Assembly: GCA_041674405.1 (NCBI GenBank)
Contig: JBAYVT010000005.1
Location: 77,047-141,046, forward strand
Length of the DNA stretch: 64,000 nt
Origin: Patescibacteria group bacterium
GTDB lineage: Bacteria; Patescibacteriota; UBA1384; XYA2-FULL-43-10
Reading direction: 5' to 3'
The notes below the pieces were generated by a model. That model was not told the DNA's origin, ran no database searches, and saw only the letters and a list, made by a program, of their open reading frames with translations. Every line of letters starts with the position of its first letter. Within the stretch, counting starts at the first letter, position 1. Position numbers and translations under genes: made by a program. Positions 19,955 through 62,706 of the stretch are shown here, piece by piece.

Positions 19955-20635
19955 CTATACAACTCTTTTTAATTTCTTCTTTGCCTGTTCTATTTGAATT
20001 ATTGCCTTGACGATGTCCTCATACATTTTATATCGGCTTTTTATCCCGGCCCAGATATCATCATTCTTTTCTTCCTTAATTACCTGGGTTAAACCGTGCA
20101 AAACCACAATCTCACGCCGCTCCTTTGGAACAGCCGCCGTAATCAATGCATCAACGCCGAATCTGGAATGTTTAATTTTTGCAAGTGGAGGCAAATTCTT
20201 CCGCCAAATCACACGTTGGCCGGAGATTGCAGGAAATGCCCTATTGGCGATTTTTGTGGTTGTAAGCTTATCAATATTGAATACACCAAGCGAAAGATCA
20301 GCCGTTTTCATAAATGCCACCGGTCCCAAAAGCTCCAAAATATGCCCCTCTGTTAAACCAATCAAGTCGGCATCCAAAAACAACAAAAGCGGATGGTGCG
20401 AATGTTTAATGCCATTATATAAAGCCATTCCCTTGCCGCCATTTTGTTTGTTTTTAAGAAGGCGTACATTTGAATATTTTTTAACAATTTCGCATGTTTT
20501 ATCCTTTGAGCAATCATCCACAACAATTTTTTCATCAATAAAATCAAGCGGAGCGACTACGTCGAGAACTTTGCGAATATTTTTTGCTTCGTTGTATGCA
20601 CAGATAATCAGTGAAATTTTTTGTTCAAATTTCAT
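19955..20635 (-). CDS. Family 2 glycosyltransferase
   Basis: 226 aa. N-terminal ISLIICAYNEAKNI...VVDDCSKDKT (DxD-type GT-A). Confidence 0.75.
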   Translation of the reverse strand: MKFEQKISLIICAYNEAKNIRKVLDVVAPLDFIDEKIVVDDCSKDKTCEIVKKYSNVRLLKNKQNGGKGMALYNGIKHSHHPLLLFLDADLIGLTEGHILELLGPVAFMKTADLSLGVFNIDKLTTTKIANRAFPAISGQRVIWRKNLPPLAKIKHSRFGVDALITAAVPKERREIVVLHGLTQVIKEEKNDDIWAGIKSRYKMYEDIVKAIIQIEQAKKKLKRVV

Positions 20636-20749
20636 CGCAGACTAATTATACCAAACTATAAAATAAAAATCAGTTTTTGTCGTATAAACGCAGCAACTCC
20701 CACAGACTGGCTGCGGGAGTTGGAGATCTGCCGTTCCCCGGAGGGAACA

Positions 20750-21277
20750 TTACGGCGCGTAGCTGGGGGGAGTGAGATGGCCAGCAATGGTCGTCCCGTT
20801 GTTCGTAGTGACGATGTCACCCTCCGCGGCGAAGTTGGCGGCGAGGCACGCCGCCGCGCCGTCTACCGAGATGTGGTTGCCGTCCATGGCGACCACCTCC
20901 ATCCACCAGGAGCCCTCCTCGTACTGCATCAGAAGATAGGGCTGGGTGCCCTGGCCCAGGTCCAGACTCCGAAGAGCCAGAGACAGGATCTCCTGGCTAG
21001 GCCGGATAGGGACCGACCCGACCTCGACATCGGCAGTGTTGTAGACCTTGATCTGGCCGTTGCCGGTCCCGTCGCGGGACATGGTCAAGTACGTGATGCC
21101 ATCGCCGCTGTCGAGGCGAGCGATGTTGCCCAAGCCGTCTGTGGCCCACTTCACACCCGCCGTCGGGAAGGCCGGGTCCACGCTTCCGCCTCCGCCACCA
21201 CCACAACCAGTCGAGATGAGGATCGCCACCAACATGGCGACCAGTCCGACCAACAACATCCATTTGCGCATGTTCAT
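20750..21277 (-). CDS. High-GC orphan lipoprotein-like protein (start ambiguous: Met at 21304, 21277 or 21271)
   Basis: Signal peptide MRKWMLLVGLVAMLVAILISTGCGGGGGG followed by a G/T/D-rich domain. GC is far above the flanks. The antisense 247-aa ORF is Arg-rich and looks spurious. Confidence 0.5.
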   Translation of the reverse strand: MNMRKWMLLVGLVAMLVAILISTGCGGGGGGSVDPAFPTAGVKWATDGLGNIARLDSGDGITYLTMSRDGTGNGQIKVYNTADVEVGSVPIRPSQEILSLALRSLDLGQGTQPYLLMQYEEGSWWMEVVAMDGNHISVDGAAACLAANFAAEGDIVTTNNGTTIAGHLTPPSYAP

Positions 21278-21540
21278 CACCTGTTCCAGGAGTTCGTACA
21301 CCATGTGGCGGCATACGTATTACAGCGCCATCAAACTAGCATATATTCAGCAATTTGTCAATAATAGATAATTATTTTCTGCCGTTATGCTACCGGCCAC
21401 AAAAAATTCTTCAGCCAAGCCAATCAAAAAATTTCCAACCATCTGGCTGGAAATTTTTTGTCAGACTTGCATACCTTTGTATATCCGAAACACAATGGAT
21501 AAGCATTGTGAAGTTGTTTTTAAAGCTACTTTATCCTAAT

Positions 21541-21572
21541 AAAAATAATCAGCTCTAAACTGATTATTTTTT
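21541..21572 (-). terminator. Intrinsic terminator downstream of rdgB; a near-identical copy lies at 23272-23304
   Basis: AAAAATAATCAG-ctctaaa-CTGATTATTTTTT. Confidence 0.65.
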
Positions 21573-21639
21573 GCAGAAAACATTGGAAGATACTGGAGAT
21601 TGTCTAGCGGTAAAACATTTTTAACGACAATACGGTACT

Positions 21640-22257
21640 TTAAAGACTAAAGTACTTGTCAAGTTCCTTGATCGCTGACCTAAAAGCTTTTCCCCTATGA
21701 TTTATTTCTATTAAATCATTTGGGTCGAACTCAGCATTTGTTTTTTTATAATTAGCATTTTTTGATAAAAATATGGGTGCGTATCCAAAACTTTTTGTTC
21801 CTTTTGGCTCGAGTGCGATGCGACCATCCCACCTTCCTTCGGTTGTCTTAACAAATTTGGTTGAAGGATCATATATAGCAACATTGCAGTTATAATGACA
21901 ACCCCGCATACTCATCGGAATCTCATTCATCTTTGACAGAACTTTTCTGTTATTTGCCTCGTCTGTTCCTTCTTCCGAATAACGGGACGAGCATATTCCC
22001 GGTTCTCCACCAAGAGCATCAATGCAAATTCCACTATCATCAGCAAGCGTAGTCATTTGCAAATTGTCGCCAATTACAATTGCTTTAATTAGCGCATTTC
22101 CTTCAAAACTTTCTGCATTTTCCTGAACCTTAAGATCAGCAATCTTGTCTTTATAATCATAAAGGAATTTCAAGTCATAATTTGAGTTCTTAAAAATCTC
22201 CCGAATTTCCCTTGCCTTACCTTGATTCGCAGTGGCGATTAAAATTGTTTTTTTCAT
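21640..22257 (-). CDS. rdgB: dITP/XTP pyrophosphatase (Ham1/RdgB family)
   Basis: 205 aa. ILIATANQGKAREIREIF... matches the Ham1 signature. Confidence 0.8.
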   Translation of the reverse strand: MKKTILIATANQGKAREIREIFKNSNYDLKFLYDYKDKIADLKVQENAESFEGNALIKAIVIGDNLQMTTLADDSGICIDALGGEPGICSSRYSEEGTDEANNRKVLSKMNEIPMSMRGCHYNCNVAIYDPSTKFVKTTEGRWDGRIALEPKGTKSFGYAPIFLSKNANYKKTNAEFDPNDLIEINHRGKAFRSAIKELDKYFSL

Positions 22258-22474
22258 AAATTATTATTTAGGATATTGTTGGCTAATATAGTATCAGAAA
22301 CACAAGTTCAATTCCAGCCATTTTTTAATGACAAAATATCCAATCTGTAGGTGGATATCTTTGGCAATGTAAATATGCAAAGTTAGAACTTGTTATAATG
22401 CCGCATAATCAAAACGGCCGCCCCCGAAGAGGCGACCGTCTGATAATACACCGGAAACGCTCCGGCGCGACTCA

Positions 22475-23149
22475 CTAGCGAAGGCTGAGGTAGCCTTGCT
22501 TCAGTTGCTCGTGAGAGATGGTGATGGTGGCGTACAGCACCCGGTTCTCGTCGATCAGGCTTCCGGGATTCTCGAAGTTCCAGGACGGCAGCCAGAGCAA
22601 GTTGTCCACGTAGTACTTGAAGCGAACCACAGGGGGGCCTTGCTCGCTGGTCAGGACCTTCACCCTCTCCATCGGAAGAGAGCTAACGAAGGTTGGCACA
22701 TCTCCCCCGCTTTGGTTTTGGGGAAGCGACCAGCAGAAGACATAGCTGACTCCTGGCCGAGACTTTCCCTCGACGCTGCCCTCGACGTAGCCTCCGAGGA
22801 AATTGCCTCCCCCGCTTAGGCTTCCACTGAGGTCAGACTTCTGGCCTTTGCTCACCAGCGGGTTGAAGACCAGTGGATGGGGCCCGAGCAGATGGTATCT
22901 CTCCAACTGCCCAATGTTCCACTTCACCCATCCAGTATCTCTGGCAGACTTCTCTCTGGCCCGCTTGATGGCAGAGTCATAGAGTTCGAAGTTACCTATC
23001 CGTGGGTTAAAGCTTCGTTCCCAGAAGTAGTCGGGCGTGTCGAGCCTGACTTTCAGCCAAGACTTGTCCGCGGGAGTCAGCCCCTTGGAGCAGCCTACAA
23101 CTGACACACCTACCAACAGAACCAACAACACGACAGCGATCTTTCGCAT
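22475..23149 (-). CDS. High-GC orphan lipoprotein
   Basis: 224 aa. MRKIAVVLLVLLVGVSVVGCSKG is a signal peptide plus lipobox (VVGC). SD AGGAAGG upstream. A GC-rich hairpin plus T-tract follows at 22411-22440. Confidence 0.55.
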   Translation of the reverse strand: MRKIAVVLLVLLVGVSVVGCSKGLTPADKSWLKVRLDTPDYFWERSFNPRIGNFELYDSAIKRAREKSARDTGWVKWNIGQLERYHLLGPHPLVFNPLVSKGQKSDLSGSLSGGGNFLGGYVEGSVEGKSRPGVSYVFCWSLPQNQSGGDVPTFVSSLPMERVKVLTSEQGPPVVRFKYYVDNLLWLPSWNFENPGSLIDENRVLYATITISHEQLKQGYLSLR

Positions 23150-23271
23150 CTTGATCGTCCCTTCCTGGATATCGGTCTAGATTTGTGTTTCAGAGCTTAA
23201 ACACAATAACACAATATTACAAATATGTCAATTATTAACTTCATTGAAGTTATATAAATATAGAACTCAAC

Positions 23272-23304
23272 AAAAAATAACCAGCACTAAACTGATTATT
23301 TATT
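23272..23304 (-). terminator. Intrinsic terminator downstream of the NUDIX gene (paralogous copy of 21541-21572)
   Basis: AAAAAATAACCAG-cactaaa-CTGATTATTTATT. Confidence 0.55.
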
Positions 23305-23354
23305 GGCAGGATATAGCAACTGAAATCAGAAACTTTTATTTGAGTGCAAATGTT

Positions 23355-23891
23355 CTATATTAGTTTCTTTTCTTTTAAATATCTTAAACCAACGAGACCC
23401 GTTGCCATGTCTGTCAGCTCTCCGGAAAGCAAGTGTTTCTCAAATTCATTTAAACTTAGTAATACTACTTCGACAAACTCAGTTTTTTCATTTTCTGGTT
23501 CTTTCACTTGTTTGCAATTTAGTGCTATAAAATTATGAAGTTCGGTATCCGAATAAGCACACTTATAAGCCTTATTAACAAGGTAAAATTCTCCTGTATA
23601 ACCAGTTTCTTCCAGTAACTCTCTTTTTATCCCATCAACCGGATATTCATTATTATCGATGCCTCCACCAGGTAGCTCAAGCAATATTTTCTCGCACCCA
23701 GGTCTAAATTGTCTCGCTAGAATTATTTTTTTATCTTCAGTAATCGCCAGCACTGCAGCAACAGGGCCCTCTTTCTTTATATGATAATTCTCAACTTCTC
23801 CATCAGGCATGCGAAAAGTTTTTTTGATAATTTTTCTAAAACCAACCTTAATCGGCTCTTCCTCTTTTATTTTTTTCCACCTTATACTCAT
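23355..23891 (-). CDS. NUDIX hydrolase
   Basis: 178 aa. Nudix box GGGIDNNEYPVDGIKRELLEETGY. Confidence 0.8.
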   Translation of the reverse strand: MSIRWKKIKEEEPIKVGFRKIIKKTFRMPDGEVENYHIKKEGPVAAVLAITEDKKIILARQFRPGCEKILLELPGGGIDNNEYPVDGIKRELLEETGYTGEFYLVNKAYKCAYSDTELHNFIALNCKQVKEPENEKTEFVEVVLLSLNEFEKHLLSGELTDMATGLVGLRYLKEKKLI

Positions 23892-24038
23892 TATTCTTTC
23901 TCCTTTTTATCATTTACCAATATCACTCTAGCAAATTCACGCCAATTGTTCTAACAATGTATTACCTATACAAAAATAACCACTCATAGAGTGGATATTT
24001 TTTGGCGAAGAACAGCGAAAGAAGTTAGAACTTGTAAA

Positions 24039-24677
24039 TTAGTGCCCCGTGATAATAATTGATGGAAATGCTGTTTTAAACAGCTCCAAACGCTCTTTGG
24101 ATTTTTCGATACTTTCGTCGGCGTACTGCTTAATTTTTTTCGATATCTCATTGCCCTTAATGCCATTCACTTTATAATCCGATAATTGCACCTCTGTTAT
24201 ATGATCCCAAATTGGGAAACTTACTTTCTTATTGATAACATCATCGGAAAATCGCTTAGAAATACTCTGATAATAAAATCCCCTGTCAAATGGATGAAAA
24301 TAAACTAGGCAGATTTCATCGGCATGCTTGCCAAGAATTCGTTGCAAAACCGTAGGATCGGCAATGGCCGAATCTAAAGCGATGTTTGAAACGGCTAGCA
24401 TATTATCAATAAACCCTTTGGCTGTAGTTTCAAAAGATTCTTGCCATTCCTTTGGGGCAATCCCGCCATAAACAGTAAAAGCTTCTTTGTCTTTTGCCCC
24501 AAATTTATTCCTCACGCTTTCCCGAACGATCAGATCAAATTCAATATGCTTATAGTTTAGACTTTCTAGCTCCCTGGCAAATGTTGATTTGCCCGTACAG
24601 GTTTTGCCACACAGGACAACTATTTGTGGTTTTTCGCAAATTATTCTTTCTTTCACTTGATTTGTAGTCAATTTCAT
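24039..24677 (-). CDS. P-loop NTPase / kinase-like protein
   Basis: 212 aa. Walker A VVLCGKTCTGKST near the N-terminus; otherwise unassigned. Confidence 0.55.
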   Translation of the reverse strand: MKLTTNQVKERIICEKPQIVVLCGKTCTGKSTFARELESLNYKHIEFDLIVRESVRNKFGAKDKEAFTVYGGIAPKEWQESFETTAKGFIDNMLAVSNIALDSAIADPTVLQRILGKHADEICLVYFHPFDRGFYYQSISKRFSDDVINKKVSFPIWDHITEVQLSDYKVNGIKGNEISKKIKQYADESIEKSKERLELFKTAFPSIIITGH

Positions 24678-24744
24678 TCTTCTAGTTTAGCACTTTTTTA
24701 TTTTCTTCTATCAATTGGGTTATATTCCCGAGTGCCATATACAA

Positions 24745-24946
24745 AAAATCACTAGTCCCAGACTAGCAATCTTTTGGCATGGGCTAGAGGAGGATCTCAC
24801 GTCGGCTATTCGCCTCCCTGGATACCCTCGGTTTCCGGCTCCTTCCGACATCGGGAGACCAAATGTTCTCCCGACCCCACTTTGTTCGACTCCTCTAAAA
24901 ACCAAAAGCCATCCCGCATAGTCAATCTTTGATTGGCGACGTGGGA
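24745..24946 (-). ncRNA. Candidate structured ncRNA, or long structured 3' extension of tRNA-Trp, ending in an intrinsic terminator
   Basis: GC-rich relative to the flanks. Nested hairpins: TAGAGGAG/CTCCTCTA closing stem, GTCGGGAGA-acatttgg-TCTCCCGA, GTCGG...CCGAC. Terminator CTAGTC-tggg-GACTAG plus T6 at 24745-24770. Only Arg/Pro-rich short ORFs overlap it. Confidence 0.4.
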
Positions 24947-25019
24947 TGGCAGGGGCTAGAGGAGTCGAACCTCTGACTAGGGTTTTGGAGACCCCTATTA
25001 TACCGTTTAACTAAGCCCC
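24947..25019 (-). tRNA. tRNA-Trp (anticodon CCA)
   Basis: Sense GGGGCTTAG...GGGGT-CTCCAAA-ACCCT...AGAGG-TTCGACT-CCTCT-AGCCCC-T-GCCA. Anticodon loop CUCCAAA; encoded CCA end. Confidence 0.85.
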
Positions 25020-25104
25020 TAAATGAGTCGTAAGCCCATAAAGTTGAGAGTCTATAAAGTAATTCAACAACTTTATGGACTTTAAAAACTTTACAGACTT
25101 TTGA

Positions 25105-52982: not shown

Positions 52983-54341
52983 CTATTTTAATTTTCCGCA
53001 AATATGTTCTGTAACTTTATCAATGGCGACCCGCTCCTGTTTCATTGTGTCGCGATCGCGAATTGTGACTGAATTGTCTTTTAAGGAATCAAAATCAACC
53101 GTCACGCACCAAGGGGTCCCGATCTCATCCTGCCTTCTATACCTTCGACCAACCGAGCCTGATTCGTCATAAAACACATTGAGCCCTGCGGCCTTAAGCT
53201 CATCCGATATCTTCTTGGCAACCTCTGGAAGCCCCTCTTTCTTCATGAGTGGGAAAACGGCAACTTTCACCGGTGCTAGCTTGGGGTGCAAACGTAGGGT
53301 CACCTCGCCGGATTCGCGGCCATCCGATCCATCGGATTCATCATAGGCATCACAAAGGAAGGCGAGCAGTGCCCGGTCAATTCCCATCGAAGGCTCAACT
53401 ACATACGGAATGAAGCGTTTGCCGCCTTGTTCATCGAAATACGAAAGATCTGTGCCTGAGAACTTTGTGTGTTGTGAAAGATCGAAATCAGTTCGCTGGG
53501 CAATCCCGGCAAGCTCAGATTGGCCAAACGGATATTTATATTCGATATCAGACGTGCCGATCGAGTAATGCGACAGCTTCTCCTTCGGGTGTTCGTATAT
53601 AGCTAAATTGTCCTCTTTGATGCCGAGATCGGTGTAGAAATGTTTTACCGCATCGATCCAGGTAGTGTACCACTTTTTAGATTCCTCTTTGTCAGGCGTG
53701 ATGAAATACTCTATTTCAGCCTGCTCGAACTCACGCGTACGGAAAATATAGTTGCCAGGCGTGATTTCGTTCCTAAAAGCCTTTCCGATCTGGGCGATAC
53801 CGAATGGGATTTTTTTTCTCGACGATTCAGTCACGTTTTTGAAGTTGACGAATATACCCTGGGCAGTCTCACCACGCAGATATGTGAGGGTAGAGCTGTC
53901 TTCTACAGGACCCAGGAATGTCTTTACGAGAATATTGAAACTCTTCTCCTCTGTAAGCTCGCCGCCGCAATCCGGGCAAACGTCTTTCTCGAGCTGATCG
54001 GCTCGGAATCTGTGATGGCACTTTTTGCACTCACGAAGAGGATCGGTGAAGCCTGATCCTGTGTGACCAGAAGCCTCCCAAACCTTCGCATTCATGATTA
54101 TACCTGCATCGAGACCGACCATATCTTCGCGTGAAGTGACAAATTTCCTCCACCATTCGTCTTTCAGATTCCGCTTCATCTCCACGCCCAAGGGGCCAAA
54201 GTCGTACACTCCGCCGATTCCGCCATATATCTCGGAAGATTGGAATATAAATCCCCTTCTCTTGCAGAGCGAAATGATCTTATCCATTTTATCTCGAGAA
54301 GCGTCAGCGACGAGAGACGATTCCATATTTTCTTTGGCCAT
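52983..54341 (-). CDS. glyQS: Glycine--tRNA ligase (alpha2 type)
   Basis: 452 aa. The N-terminus ...IISLCKRRGFIFQSSEIYGGIGGVYDFGPLG is the GlyQS signature. Confidence 0.85.
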   Translation of the reverse strand: MAKENMESSLVADASRDKMDKIISLCKRRGFIFQSSEIYGGIGGVYDFGPLGVEMKRNLKDEWWRKFVTSREDMVGLDAGIIMNAKVWEASGHTGSGFTDPLRECKKCHHRFRADQLEKDVCPDCGGELTEEKSFNILVKTFLGPVEDSSTLTYLRGETAQGIFVNFKNVTESSRKKIPFGIAQIGKAFRNEITPGNYIFRTREFEQAEIEYFITPDKEESKKWYTTWIDAVKHFYTDLGIKEDNLAIYEHPKEKLSHYSIGTSDIEYKYPFGQSELAGIAQRTDFDLSQHTKFSGTDLSYFDEQGGKRFIPYVVEPSMGIDRALLAFLCDAYDESDGSDGRESGEVTLRLHPKLAPVKVAVFPLMKKEGLPEVAKKISDELKAAGLNVFYDESGSVGRRYRRQDEIGTPWCVTVDFDSLKDNSVTIRDRDTMKQERVAIDKVTEHICGKLK

Positions 54342-54493
54342 TTTAGGTCCTTTTGCTATTTCTAGATTCAGAATATCATTTTATTGCCAAATTCACAATC
54401 TATAGCTATTTACCTTGACTATTTGCCGGTTTTATGATATCGTGCTTACGCACCCATAGGGTGACTACTGAATTGCCAAGGAGGCAAACCGCT

Positions 54494-55378
54494 ATGCCAG
54501 TTAAAACGTCGCACCTCAGAACCCCGTACGTCAGGCAGTTTCTCCAAGCGTTCGACATGGACCTCGGGTTACTAGATGACCTCGAGGCACTCGTCGAAGC
54601 CTGCTCGAGCCGCAACAAGCGCTTCGAGAGGGGCATGGACAAGGTCCGCTTCGAGTTCGAGCGGGACCAGTCCAAGTGGAATCAGTCCCAGTTGGATGCT
54701 ATCTTCACGCTCTCCGAGCGTTGGAGAATGCGCCATGGGGAGACTCCCTTCAAGGAAGGGTCTTCCTACGACTTGATCGTTACTATGGGCGGAGCCAGAC
54801 TCTCTCCGTGGCAGCGCGGTGCCTATGCCGCCTTGGCAATGTCCGAGGGTCGTGTGAAGGCTAGTACCTTGGTCATCGGCGGATCCAAACGGCACCTGCC
54901 GATGGCAGAGCTTCCGTTCATCACCGACTACGTCGATGTTGAGCGGCTGGTGTCCGAACGCAACCACCAGACCTTCTTGGTCGGCGGCGAAGAGAAATCG
55001 TGCATCACTGAGCATGACCTCTGCCTGGCCGCAGAAGCCAAGCTCGTGAAGGCTCATCCCGATCTCCACATCGTCACGATCTGCGTAGACATGGAGAGGG
55101 CGGGCAACCACGATGTCATCGCTGAGGTCATGAACCACAAGGAGCTCTTCCACTCCGACCGCGCACTATCCGTGGCTGGTGTGTCCACTCAGCTCTACGC
55201 GACCGGCCTGGACGCTGACCTCTGGCTGGACGCCGACACGCATGACTGGCGATACTACTCCGCAATCGGCCACCCGGTCGACCCGATCTACTCCGACCGC
55301 CGCACTCCGACCGTGTACTTCAACGAAATTCAGACGACCATGTGCAAGAAGGCACTGGCCGAGCTCAAGGGCTACTAG
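54494..55378 (+). CDS. High-GC orphan DUF218/YdcF(SanA)-like protein
   Basis: Start preferred at MPVKTSHL, preceded by CCAAGGAGGCaaaccgctATG. The ...DLIVTMGGARLSPWQRGAYAALAMSEGRVKASTLVIGGS...EEKSCITEHDLC... pattern resembles the DUF218 core. GC is far above the flanks. Confidence 0.5.
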   Translation: MPVKTSHLRTPYVRQFLQAFDMDLGLLDDLEALVEACSSRNKRFERGMDKVRFEFERDQSKWNQSQLDAIFTLSERWRMRHGETPFKEGSSYDLIVTMGGARLSPWQRGAYAALAMSEGRVKASTLVIGGSKRHLPMAELPFITDYVDVERLVSERNHQTFLVGGEEKSCITEHDLCLAAEAKLVKAHPDLHIVTICVDMERAGNHDVIAEVMNHKELFHSDRALSVAGVSTQLYATGLDADLWLDADTHDWRYYSAIGHPVDPIYSDRRTPTVYFNEIQTTMCKKALAELKGY

Positions 55379-55430
55379 CCCACAACTTACTGAGATCCGC
55401 CTAGTGGCGGATAATGACTCTACCGCCGCA

Positions 55431-55465
55431 GGCGAGTCCCACTCCGGGGCTCGCCTGTTGCATTT
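55431..55465 (+). terminator. GC-rich hairpin terminator after the high-GC DUF218-like gene
   Basis: GGCGAGTCCC-actcc-GGGGCTCGCC followed by TGTTGCATTTTAT. It is preceded by a second hairpin TCCGCC-tagt-GGCGGA (55396-55411). Confidence 0.5.
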
Positions 55466-57823: not shown

Positions 57824-57989
57824 GAATTGGGCCCCGACTATTGTCGGGGCCCTGTGCTCTCCTCCTCTCTCGGCGGAGGATCACCGAGCCAATACGCGAA
57901 TGGCGGCTCGGCCAGTGGGTCATCTTTGAGTATCTCGGCCCAGGTTGTCTTCTCTTCGTTTGTCATCGCTCTCATGATTTCGACACTCC

Positions 57990-58220
57990 TTAGCAAGACA
58001 GATGTTGCCAGCGGCCAGTGCCGTCAGCGTACGAACGCATGCACTTTCCATGGCCACAGCCGATTTCTCCGCATGCAACGCACCTTTTGAGGCTATTGCG
58101 CTCTCTGCCAGTTTTCTTGGACGGAGCATGTAAACCCGCGTCACAGTGGGGGCATTTTCCCCCGTTCGCGGTGATTCTCCAGCTGCGGTTCCTTCTGTTC
58201 TGACGCTTGCTTGTCGCCAT
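57990..58220 (-). CDS. High-GC orphan zinc-ribbon miniprotein
   Basis: 76 aa with CPHC-x18-CVAC and a further ...CGHGKC. SD AAGGAGGccaggATG. Alternative-frame ORFs are low-complexity and treated as spurious. Confidence 0.45.
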   Translation of the reverse strand: MATSKRQNRRNRSWRITANGGKCPHCDAGLHAPSKKTGRERNSLKRCVACGEIGCGHGKCMRSYADGTGRWQHLSC

Positions 58221-58284
58221 CCTGGCCTCCTTGGCTGTTTGGTTTCGAAAAGCTTAACCGGTTTAAGCCCTTCGAGCCAAAAAC

Positions 58285-58312
58285 AAAAAACCGCCCTAGT
58301 GGCGGCCTTTTG
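58285..58312 (-). terminator. Intrinsic terminator of the CYTH-domain gene
   Basis: Minus sense: AAAAGGCCGCC-acta-GGGCGGTTTTTTGTTTTT. The stem sequence is near-identical to the hairpin at 55396-55411. Confidence 0.6.
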
Positions 58313-62274: not shown

Positions 62275-62305
62275 TAACAGCGATAAAAAGCAAGAGCGGA
62301 CAGCT
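62275..62305 (-). terminator. Intrinsic terminator of the 106-aa higher-GC gene
   Basis: Minus sense: GCAAGAGC-agctgtcc-GCTCTTGC-TTTTTAT. An alternative GCGGAC/GTCCGC pairing overlaps it. Confidence 0.55.
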
Positions 62306-62323
62306 GCTCTTGCCGTCCGCCGG

Positions 62324-62644
62324 TCACCCGAGAAGCTCGTTATGCCTCACCGGGTTGAAACTCATTACTTCCCATCCATGCTGGGCCTCTTCTAGGAGCA
62401 CGTTTGGGTCATGTTCAACTTCGGTGTACTCGTGCATGAGCATTCCGTCCTCCACTAGCGTGTATGCTTCATTGCCGCTACTGCCACCGTAGTTATACAC
62501 CCTGATCGTCGCAATCCAGGGATCGAGAAGCCCAACCTCCAGCATCCATAAGAATGGCGCACTACCCTCGAACCTGGCAAACCCATTCTGCTCGCGCTGC
62601 CTTTGCAGCTCAAGGAGGATCAACCGCTTTTCTTTTTCGGTCAT
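62324..62644 (-). CDS. Higher-GC orphan hypothetical protein
   Basis: 106 aa. SD GAGGTGA 6 nt from the ATG. A hairpin CAGTATA-gata-TATACTG lies in its upstream region. Confidence 0.45.
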   Translation of the reverse strand: MTEKEKRLILLELQRQREQNGFARFEGSAPFLWMLEVGLLDPWIATIRVYNYGGSSGNEAYTLVEDGMLMHEYTEVEHDPNVLLEEAQHGWEVMSFNPVRHNELLG

Positions 62645-62706
62645 GCTTCGTCACCTCAAAAATCAGTATAGATATATACTGAAAATAAATCAAAAGAGAA
62701 CAAAAA

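Follow-up and report, generated by a model that had tools for sequence, protein, structure and literature searches.

The window analysed here is a stretch of 64,000 nucleotides (64 kb) from a Patescibacteria group bacterium (assembly GCA_041674405.1, contig JBAYVT010000005.1, positions 77,047 to 141,046). Between a NUDIX hydrolase gene and rdgB it contains a short block rich in guanine and cytosine (GC), referred to here as island 2, with a single open reading frame (ORF) for a predicted lipoprotein, LP2. We consider it likely that horizontal transfer brought island 2, a single-gene unit of ~750 bp, into the NUDIX-rdgB intergenic region of a Patescibacteria genome that is otherwise rich in adenine and thymine (AT). 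Its parts, all on the minus strand, are the following:

22415-23168: GC-rich block of island 2 (ribosome-binding site (RBS), ORF and terminator hairpins), from maximum-sum GC segmentation and the composition profile
22475-23149: LP2 ORF, 224 aa, NCBI tag WC080_04135 (hypothetical), from the ORF list, the frame composition and a 48%-identical homologue
23090-23149: signal peptide and lipobox MRKIAVVLLVLLVGVSVVGC with the predicted lipidated Cys20, from the translation
23158-23166: Shine-Dalgarno site AGGAAGGGA, 8 nt 5' of the ATG, by direct sequence reading
23203-23231: candidate sigma-70-like promoter of the LP2 gene (TTGACA, 17 nt, TATTGT, TG upstream), by consensus match
22450-22466: first short GC-rich hairpin past the LP2 stop codon, by RNA folding
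22408-22444 (about): intrinsic terminator with a long GC stem GGUCGCCUC/GGGGCGGCC followed by UUUU, by RNA folding

The proposed acquisition is founded in the first place on composition. Maximum-sum segmentation delimits a block of 754 bp with 57.4% GC, flanked over 200 nt by 30% and 26.5% GC, in a window whose mean is 40%; along the profile, the GC content jumps from ~30% to 55-60% and then drops again. Both edges are sharp, within tens of bases, and the untranslated terminator lies inside the GC-rich block. The GC content at third codon positions (GC3) of the LP2 ORF reaches 0.72, against 0.27-0.46 in 51 of the 53 other window ORFs scored, the highest value among those outside the GC-rich blocks being that of a tRNA synthetase (0.53). 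By codon position the GC content is 0.56/0.42/0.72, and this order (GC3 > GC1 > GC2) indicates a true coding frame of a GC-rich genome type. The codon usage of LP2 is negatively correlated with that of the native window genes (r = -0.34) and positively with that of two other GC-rich ORFs of the window, LP1 of island 1 (r = 0.60) and the ORF of island 3 (r = 0.41), both described below. Deviant composition and codon usage together with sharp boundaries, by which genomic islands are recognised, are thus found at island 2. The initial annotation of this DNA had placed a GC-rich island at 22395-23165, with an ORF at 22475-23149 bearing a VVGC lipobox and a GC-rich hairpin plus T4 at 22411-22440, and had regarded it as foreign. 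The block is borne out with the slightly different edges given above, the ORF is present on the minus strand with its cysteine at residue 20, folding confirms the hairpin, and a foreign origin is supported by the GC3, the negative codon-usage correlation, the sharp edges and relatives that show no strong GC excess.

The unit appears to carry its own expression signals. The promoter-like site matches the consensus at 10 of 12 positions, the best such match between 19500 and 25500, and from this AT-rich DNA just outside the 5' edge of the GC block a sigma-70-type promoter would start transcription. A strong Shine-Dalgarno site would then direct the translation of LP2, which would be exported and tethered through a lipid at Cys20 to the outer side of the cell membrane. 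Past the stop codon, the 75-nt tail folds into two hairpins (-38.5 kcal/mol, z = -4.4, with none of 200 shuffles as stable). The terminator has the properties expected of an intrinsic one, namely 9-10 GC-rich pairs and a UUCG-type loop, then GUUUUG, and transcription of the island would end at this GC-rich structure of its own; its U-run is short (4), and it is unlisted by a simple consensus scan demanding 5 T in 8. Beyond it, an AT-rich hairpin of the pre-existing 5' region of rdgB may act as a second insulator ahead of the rdgB promoter. An inverted repeat with 11-nt arms (TTGTGTTTAAG / CTGAAACACAA on the coding strand) lies at 23183-23206, over the LP2 -10 box and the predicted start; it could be an operator, and is not significant alone at ~0.5 expected by chance (a rough hand estimate).

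The only statement on function that the sequence of LP2 supports is that it would be a membrane-anchored surface protein of a Patescibacteria-type family, most likely with the role of a cell-surface accessory protein. The N-terminus, MRKIAVVLLVLLVGVSVVGC, presents a charged n-region (MRK...), a hydrophobic core and VVGC, with the cysteine at residue 20. The PROSITE PS51257-type pattern comprises a Lys or Arg in the first seven residues, a hydrophobic core, [LVI][ASTVI][GAS]C and the cysteine at positions 15-35; applied by hand, it is matched by LP2. The protein therefore fits the signal pattern of bacterial lipoproteins (Lgt/LspA substrates), as do most members of its family, among them P0002, P0003, P0006, P0008, P0010, P0014 and P0016, which also bear a lipobox. 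Three members (P0027, P0007 and P0012) are without a signal peptide, and P0027 (L031 138-3950) is encoded among a series of small genes without annotation, including a pair of paralogues with 37% identity.

LP2 belongs to a genuine family, if an extremely rare one. A search of 5.8 billion clustered proteins returned only LP2 itself (Patescibacteria group bacterium) and one protein of 48% identity, P0002, conserved along its full length; a profile search of 1.8 billion representatives gave 15 matches. The members have the motifs GxHPL, SGSxSG, FxW and PTIRFKF in common, and the few that are named belong to Candidatus Berkelbacteria and Gribaldobacteria (Patescibacteria). The description of LP2 as an orphan was thus nearly right as regards its rarity, although relatives do exist. 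LP2 has no match in Pfam, NCBIfam, PHROG or PADLOC; sequence searches of the PDB were empty and no PDB fold match was obtained. A first AlphaFold model was poor (predicted local distance difference test, pLDDT, of 64), and a model built from a 13-sequence alignment reached a pLDDT of 81 and a predicted template modelling score of 0.70, with a long helix followed by a beta-rich domain. LP2 represents, in this respect, a lipoprotein family that is both very rare and devoid of a recognisable fold.

The loci of the relatives provide a second line of evidence. The gene of P0002, the closest relative, is mildly GC-enriched (52% GC, GC3 0.61 versus 0.48 in its flanks) and sits past the end of a GreA-like gene identified by sequence reading. 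P0003, with 37% identity to LP2, is encoded one gene downstream of greA; its gene is matched in composition to its contig (43% GC in 44%), as is that of P0027 (35% in 37%). Neither the P0002 nor the P0003 locus lies between NUDIX and rdgB, so that LP2 is positionally incongruent with both; there is no greA in the 64-kb window. Next to P0003, an adjoining ORF of 65 aa (L030 2614-2811) has 56% GC in a contig of 44%. Composition, codon usage, the GC-rich terminator and the composition and different locus of the relatives together lead us to propose that this LP2 gene is a xenolog, its GC-rich donor being as yet unsampled. This donor would have roughly 55-65% GC and is plausibly another member of the candidate phyla radiation (CPR), which the Patescibacteria affiliation of the named family members makes probable. 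Individually transferred genes, mostly exchanged between Patescibacteria, have been documented in aquifer genomes (PMC12455944). Island 2 is in this sense a fairly ordinary single-gene horizontal transfer in Patescibacteria, a known phenomenon that leaves current understanding unchanged, and it offers a clean, sharply bounded example of an ultra-small, streamlined symbiont-type bacterium gaining accessory genes singly.

Several observations weigh against an acquisition. No donor is found in the 5.8 billion proteins, where the best match is 48% identical and its gene has merely 52% GC, and a donor search with the LP2 profile re-found just a handful of proteins. No empty site was found either, every recovered copy of the organism carrying island 2. 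In GTDB species genomes, the rdgB-anchored loci of the best relatives (Moraniibacteriota and similar, 58-65% rdgB identity) contain 0 of 10 neighbouring window proteins within +/-10 kb and show no synteny; the JGI metagenomes gave no locus closer than these, and exact-protein look-ups with rdgB, NUDIX, LP1, LP2 and the proteins of islands 3-5 returned the same strain only. Island 2 is accompanied by neither an integrase nor a transposase, it has no terminal inverted repeats or target-site duplication, and no tRNA adjoins it, so that the mobility signatures of a genomic island are absent. Lastly, the LP2 promoter-like site belongs to the AT-rich surroundings and not to the GC-rich block, and may have come with the gene or been recruited locally. 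As neither a donor nor an empty site could be identified, composition and context are our only grounds for inferring the transfer. Two repeats that flank island 2, the 8-mer TGGATATC and a direct repeat (15/21), were considered as insertion marks and rejected, both being at chance level for AT-rich DNA by a rough hand estimate.

The place of island 2 can be defined with precision from its surroundings, which comprise the following features, again on the minus strand:

21640-22257: rdgB (Ham1-family nucleoside triphosphate pyrophosphatase), native; Pfam PF01725, E = 7.6e-49; GC3 = 0.31
23355-23891: NUDIX hydrolase, native, upstream of island 2; Pfam PF00293, E = 3.2e-13; GC3 = 0.28
22258-22400: module B, the AT-rich spacer on the 5' side of rdgB, from alignment and folding
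23892-24041: module B', paralogous to B, the spacer that separates NUDIX from the kinase-like gene, from a collinear alignment over ~150 nt
23273-23305: terminator A', the hairpin of NUDIX itself, 91% identical to 21541-21573; fold z = -3.0
21541-21573: terminator A, the rdgB hairpin and twin of A', from alignment and folding

Island 2 is placed exactly between the NUDIX terminator A' and the rdgB 5' spacer B, and rdgB is, as initially stated, the sole native gene between islands 1 and 2. Module B contains the palindromic 14-mer ACAAGTTCTAACTT (22380-22393), a hairpin with a T-run (22333-22361) and the rdgB promoter-like boxes, and module B' the same 14-mer (24022-24035), a terminator-like hairpin at ~23972-24004 and the NUDIX promoter-like boxes. 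The initial annotation had reported an AT-rich module with these first three elements downstream of the GC-rich terminator, a near-copy of it 3' of the kinase gene, and an insertion just upstream of a pre-existing gene 3' end. The module is indeed present, and so is the stacking of a GC-rich on an AT-rich hairpin, although the latter (ATATCCA/TGGATAT) is weak alone (-9.6 kcal/mol, z = -1.0). As for the second copy, the exact 14-mer, the similar hairpin and an alignment above chance stand (score 38 versus 17.3 +/- 2.5 in 2000 shuffles, maximum 29), although "near-copy" is an overstatement for 46 identical columns out of 76. Apart from itself, the 143-nt module B has its best match in the window, and the sole one above noise, in the kinase-NUDIX spacer. 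The likeness is collinear, extending from the 14-mer through the hairpin and the -35/-10-like boxes as far as the rdgB and NUDIX start codons. The terminators A and A' are also alike, with 33 of 37 positions identical and a score of 52 versus 18.3 +/- 2.7. Since the likeness runs into the promoters and NUDIX has its own terminator, which lies upstream of island 2, module B corresponds to the 5' intergenic region of rdgB and not to an orphaned 3' end, and the insertion site proposed initially is not upheld. From its sequence, module B is better read as a putative insulating hairpin plus the rdgB promoter region.

The 14-mer ACAAGTTCTAACTT occurs at exactly two sites in 64 kb, even allowing two mismatches, a count that is not significant alone because, with two or fewer mismatches, two matches or more were obtained in 17 of 100 shuffles. 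Within the window the module is accordingly no common repeat, and it does not behave there as a dispersed repeat of the repetitive extragenic palindromic (REP) or miniature inverted-repeat transposable element (MITE) type. In front of both rdgB and NUDIX, the 14-mer sits 136-144 nt ahead of the ATG. Each of these two non-homologous nucleotide-pool sanitising genes has a spacer of type B on its 5' side and a terminator of type A on its 3' side, an arrangement that suggests joint regulation, or else that these frames were duplicated or gene-converted long ago. Between the rdgB terminator and island 1, the AT-rich spacer 21313-21540 contains hairpins at 21416-21469 (26-nt arms, 81% complementary) and 21491-21510, so that with terminator A three hairpins are stacked. 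The spacers that host islands are unusually long even with the islands subtracted. An Rfam scan of 20600-25100 (E <= 1) returned tRNA-Trp and otherwise noise only.

Island 2 is not isolated, as the window holds at least five GC-rich blocks of 0.36-1.0 kb each. The other four are these:

20689-21312, minus strand: island 1, 63% GC, with the lipoprotein ORF LP1 (20750-21274 or 21304), GC3 0.82, and two GC hairpins
54441-55461, plus strand: island 3, 59% GC, with a 294-aa ORF (54494-55378), GC3 0.78, and GC hairpins
57826-58310 (approximate edges), minus strand: island 4, peak 57% GC, with ORFs 57990-58220 and 57838-57996 and a hairpin at 57829-57852
62290-62650 (approximate edges), minus strand: island 5, peak 54% GC, with a 106-aa ORF (62324-62644)

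Islands 1-3 extend from the RBS to GC-rich hairpins with a short T-run and are intergenic, between housekeeping genes; in islands 1 and 3, the GC shift starts right after the -10-like box. On sequence inspection islands 4 and 5 have a similar layout, with their own RBS and terminator-like hairpins. Island 4 encodes a Cys-rich protein of 76 aa (57990-58220) and one of 52 aa (57838-57996), and in island 5 a terminator-like stem followed by TTTTT is found just past the stop codon (~62290-62320). Promoter-like boxes are all that the 5' regions of islands 1-3 share with one another and with that of the P0002 locus. Proteins were searched for three of the islands, and none has a close donor-like database match; the island-3 protein found itself only among 5.8 billion proteins, with no family match. 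In the Moraniibacteriota-type loci (~62 kb), no comparable coding GC islands were present, and the sole GC-rich patch of those relatives, found in L005, is free of tRNAs, Rfam matches and ORFs of at least 40 aa. The density of such mini-islands, five in 64 kb with edges devoid of recognised mobility signatures, suggests frequent gene gain by short fragments in this lineage. Two of the gained genes, LP1 and LP2, encode surface lipoproteins, and inserts of this size might escape island-detection methods aimed at larger regions.

The islands may alternatively be regarded as cassettes moved by a dedicated element, whether integron-like, integrase- or tRNA-targeted, or a small non-autonomous transposon, and not as products of uptake and illegitimate recombination. 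We consider this unlikely. Such an element would agree with five units of alike design (RBS, ORF and GC hairpins) in 64 kb, with the occurrence of island 5 on a sibling-sample contig, where 393 nt are 100% identical and the upstream 134 nt are different, and with a GC-rich segment by tRNA-Trp that ends in an att-like 17/18 repeat of the tRNA 3' end. However, the variant island-5 contig is just 527 bp long, none of the five junction pairs shows terminal inverted repeats or target duplications, and the 5' regions of islands 1-3 have no shared motif beyond promoter-like boxes, nor do their 3' ends share sequence by eye. No integrase or transposase ORF was noticed in the inspected regions, where the scanned neighbours gave housekeeping-type Pfam matches only, the other window ORFs being unscanned. 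The comparison with integron cassettes is instructive in this regard. The islands resemble them as short single-ORF units that end in an imperfect inverted repeat, one per site, but they are scattered instead of arrayed, they have their own promoter-like sites, and their 3' hairpins, which share no sequence by eye, end in T-runs as terminators do. In the inspected parts of the window no integrase ORF was seen, and no attC-like core sites were recognised by eye, without a covariance model.

It can also be hypothesised that the five blocks stem from one recurrent capture process, in which transcript-sized units from a GC-rich partner or host would be directed to terminator-promoter junctions. 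In such a scheme, islands 1-3 would each span approximately a transcription start to the T-run of a terminator, and the route could be competence-driven uptake of short DNA or even an RNA-mediated one. Although we regard this proposition as quite unlikely, it would, if true, supply the cell with new surface proteins. In the literature, transfers in Patescibacteria are mostly within the group, with natural competence proposed as one route (PMC12455944, mSystems 2025). The islands described here resemble the transferred genes and small islands of that study in being compositionally atypical accessory, often unannotated genes in an AT-rich, streamlined CPR genome; the window moreover encodes type IV pilus-type genes (PilN, PilO and a T2SSE-type ATPase) a few kb away. 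They differ in that the units are unusually short, at 0.36-1.0 kb, and densely placed, with five in 64 kb, and in that islands 1-3 contain hardly anything beyond the RBS, ORF and terminator.

A native, vertically inherited LP2 gene, made GC-rich by selection on mRNA or protein or by biased gene conversion, is distinctly improbable. The family does occur in Patescibacteria, and its closest member, P0002, is itself somewhat GC-enriched (GC3 0.61 versus 0.48 in the flanks). The shift is nevertheless concentrated at synonymous third positions (0.72 versus ~0.35), reaches the untranslated terminator and ends within tens of bases on either side; the more distant family members are matched in composition to their contigs, two relatives are at a different locus, and the same anomaly affects the unrelated ORFs of islands 1, 3, 4 and 5.

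A phage-derived moron, or a prophage or plasmid remnant, is in our view highly improbable. Lipoproteins are common among phage morons, and island 2 shares with morons, as these are generally known, a single ORF with its own promoter-like site and terminator, an intergenic position and a composition unlike that of its neighbours, in an autonomous promoter-gene-terminator layout. In contrast to prophage morons, it is flanked by chromosomal housekeeping genes (the neighbours being NUDIX, Ham1 and GT2) and has no matches to phage families or genomes: LP1, LP2 and the island-3 protein have no PHROG match and no relative in IMG/VR, LP2 has no match in the INPHARED phages, and LP1 and the island-3 protein have none among the PLSDB plasmids. 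PADLOC gave no match for LP1, LP2 or the island-3 protein.

Finally, an assembly chimera or contamination, in which GC-rich reads of another organism were joined into an AT-rich contig, is very unlikely, to the point of being negligible: the source is a metagenome assembly and two contigs from other samples end inside island 2 (L026/L024 at 22747-22754, L028 at 23083), but a 395-kb ENA contig (ERZ27247358 k141_1464549, MEGAHIT-style by its name prefix) and an independent Logan contig each contain the whole island, both junctions included, in identical form, each junction is separately covered by JGI data and two further runs (JGI 3300037067 covering the island on two contigs, SRR18595300 the promoter-side junction), and the ORF, RBS and terminator are intact and in the same orientation as the neighbouring genes. 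The junctions are thus found in ERZ27247358, SRR6484325, JGI 3300037067 and SRR18595300, and all copies recovered across the ENA, Logan and JGI assemblies are 99.8-100% identical. In the JGI copy L026 (3300037067), a 1-nt deletion relative to window position 24470 affects the P-loop kinase-like gene (24039-24677), for which two ORFs (93 and 120 aa) are predicted in that copy; strain-level pseudogenisation or a sequencing error may be responsible.

A few further observations concern the other islands and their neighbourhood. The sibling-sample contig mentioned above (L033, 527 bp, ERZ27247363 k141_1212697) is 100% identical to window positions 62312-62704, that is, 393 nt comprising island 5 and a 60-nt AT-rich leader, and its positions 1-134 diverge completely upstream of 62704; it could stem from a rearranged strain or another context of insertion, or be an artefact of a short contig. 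On the minus strand, right after tRNA-Trp (24947-25020), lies a segment at 24775-24964 with ~170 nt of GC-rich sequence and a long closing stem (z = -2.3), which ends in the 17/18 direct repeat of the tRNA-Trp 3' end (TGGCAxGGGCTAGAGGAG) and has no Rfam match at E <= 1. By its sequence it looks like the att-site remnant of an integrated element or a structured RNA of unknown type; the repeat is 1.6 kb from island 2 and does not flank it. The L033 context and the tRNA-Trp repeat are hints of mobility that prove nothing. Islands 4 and 5 occur in the same context in another run (SRR22315508), and the 106-aa ORF of island 5 has a sub-threshold match to DUF4177. Island 3, on the plus strand, is flanked by two minus-strand genes, those of a class II aminoacyl-tRNA synthetase and of RecO, and has three hairpins past its ORF. 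This synthetase (52983-54341), with 48% GC and a GC3 of 0.53, is above all other ORFs scored outside the islands and, judging from its composition, may be an older transfer.

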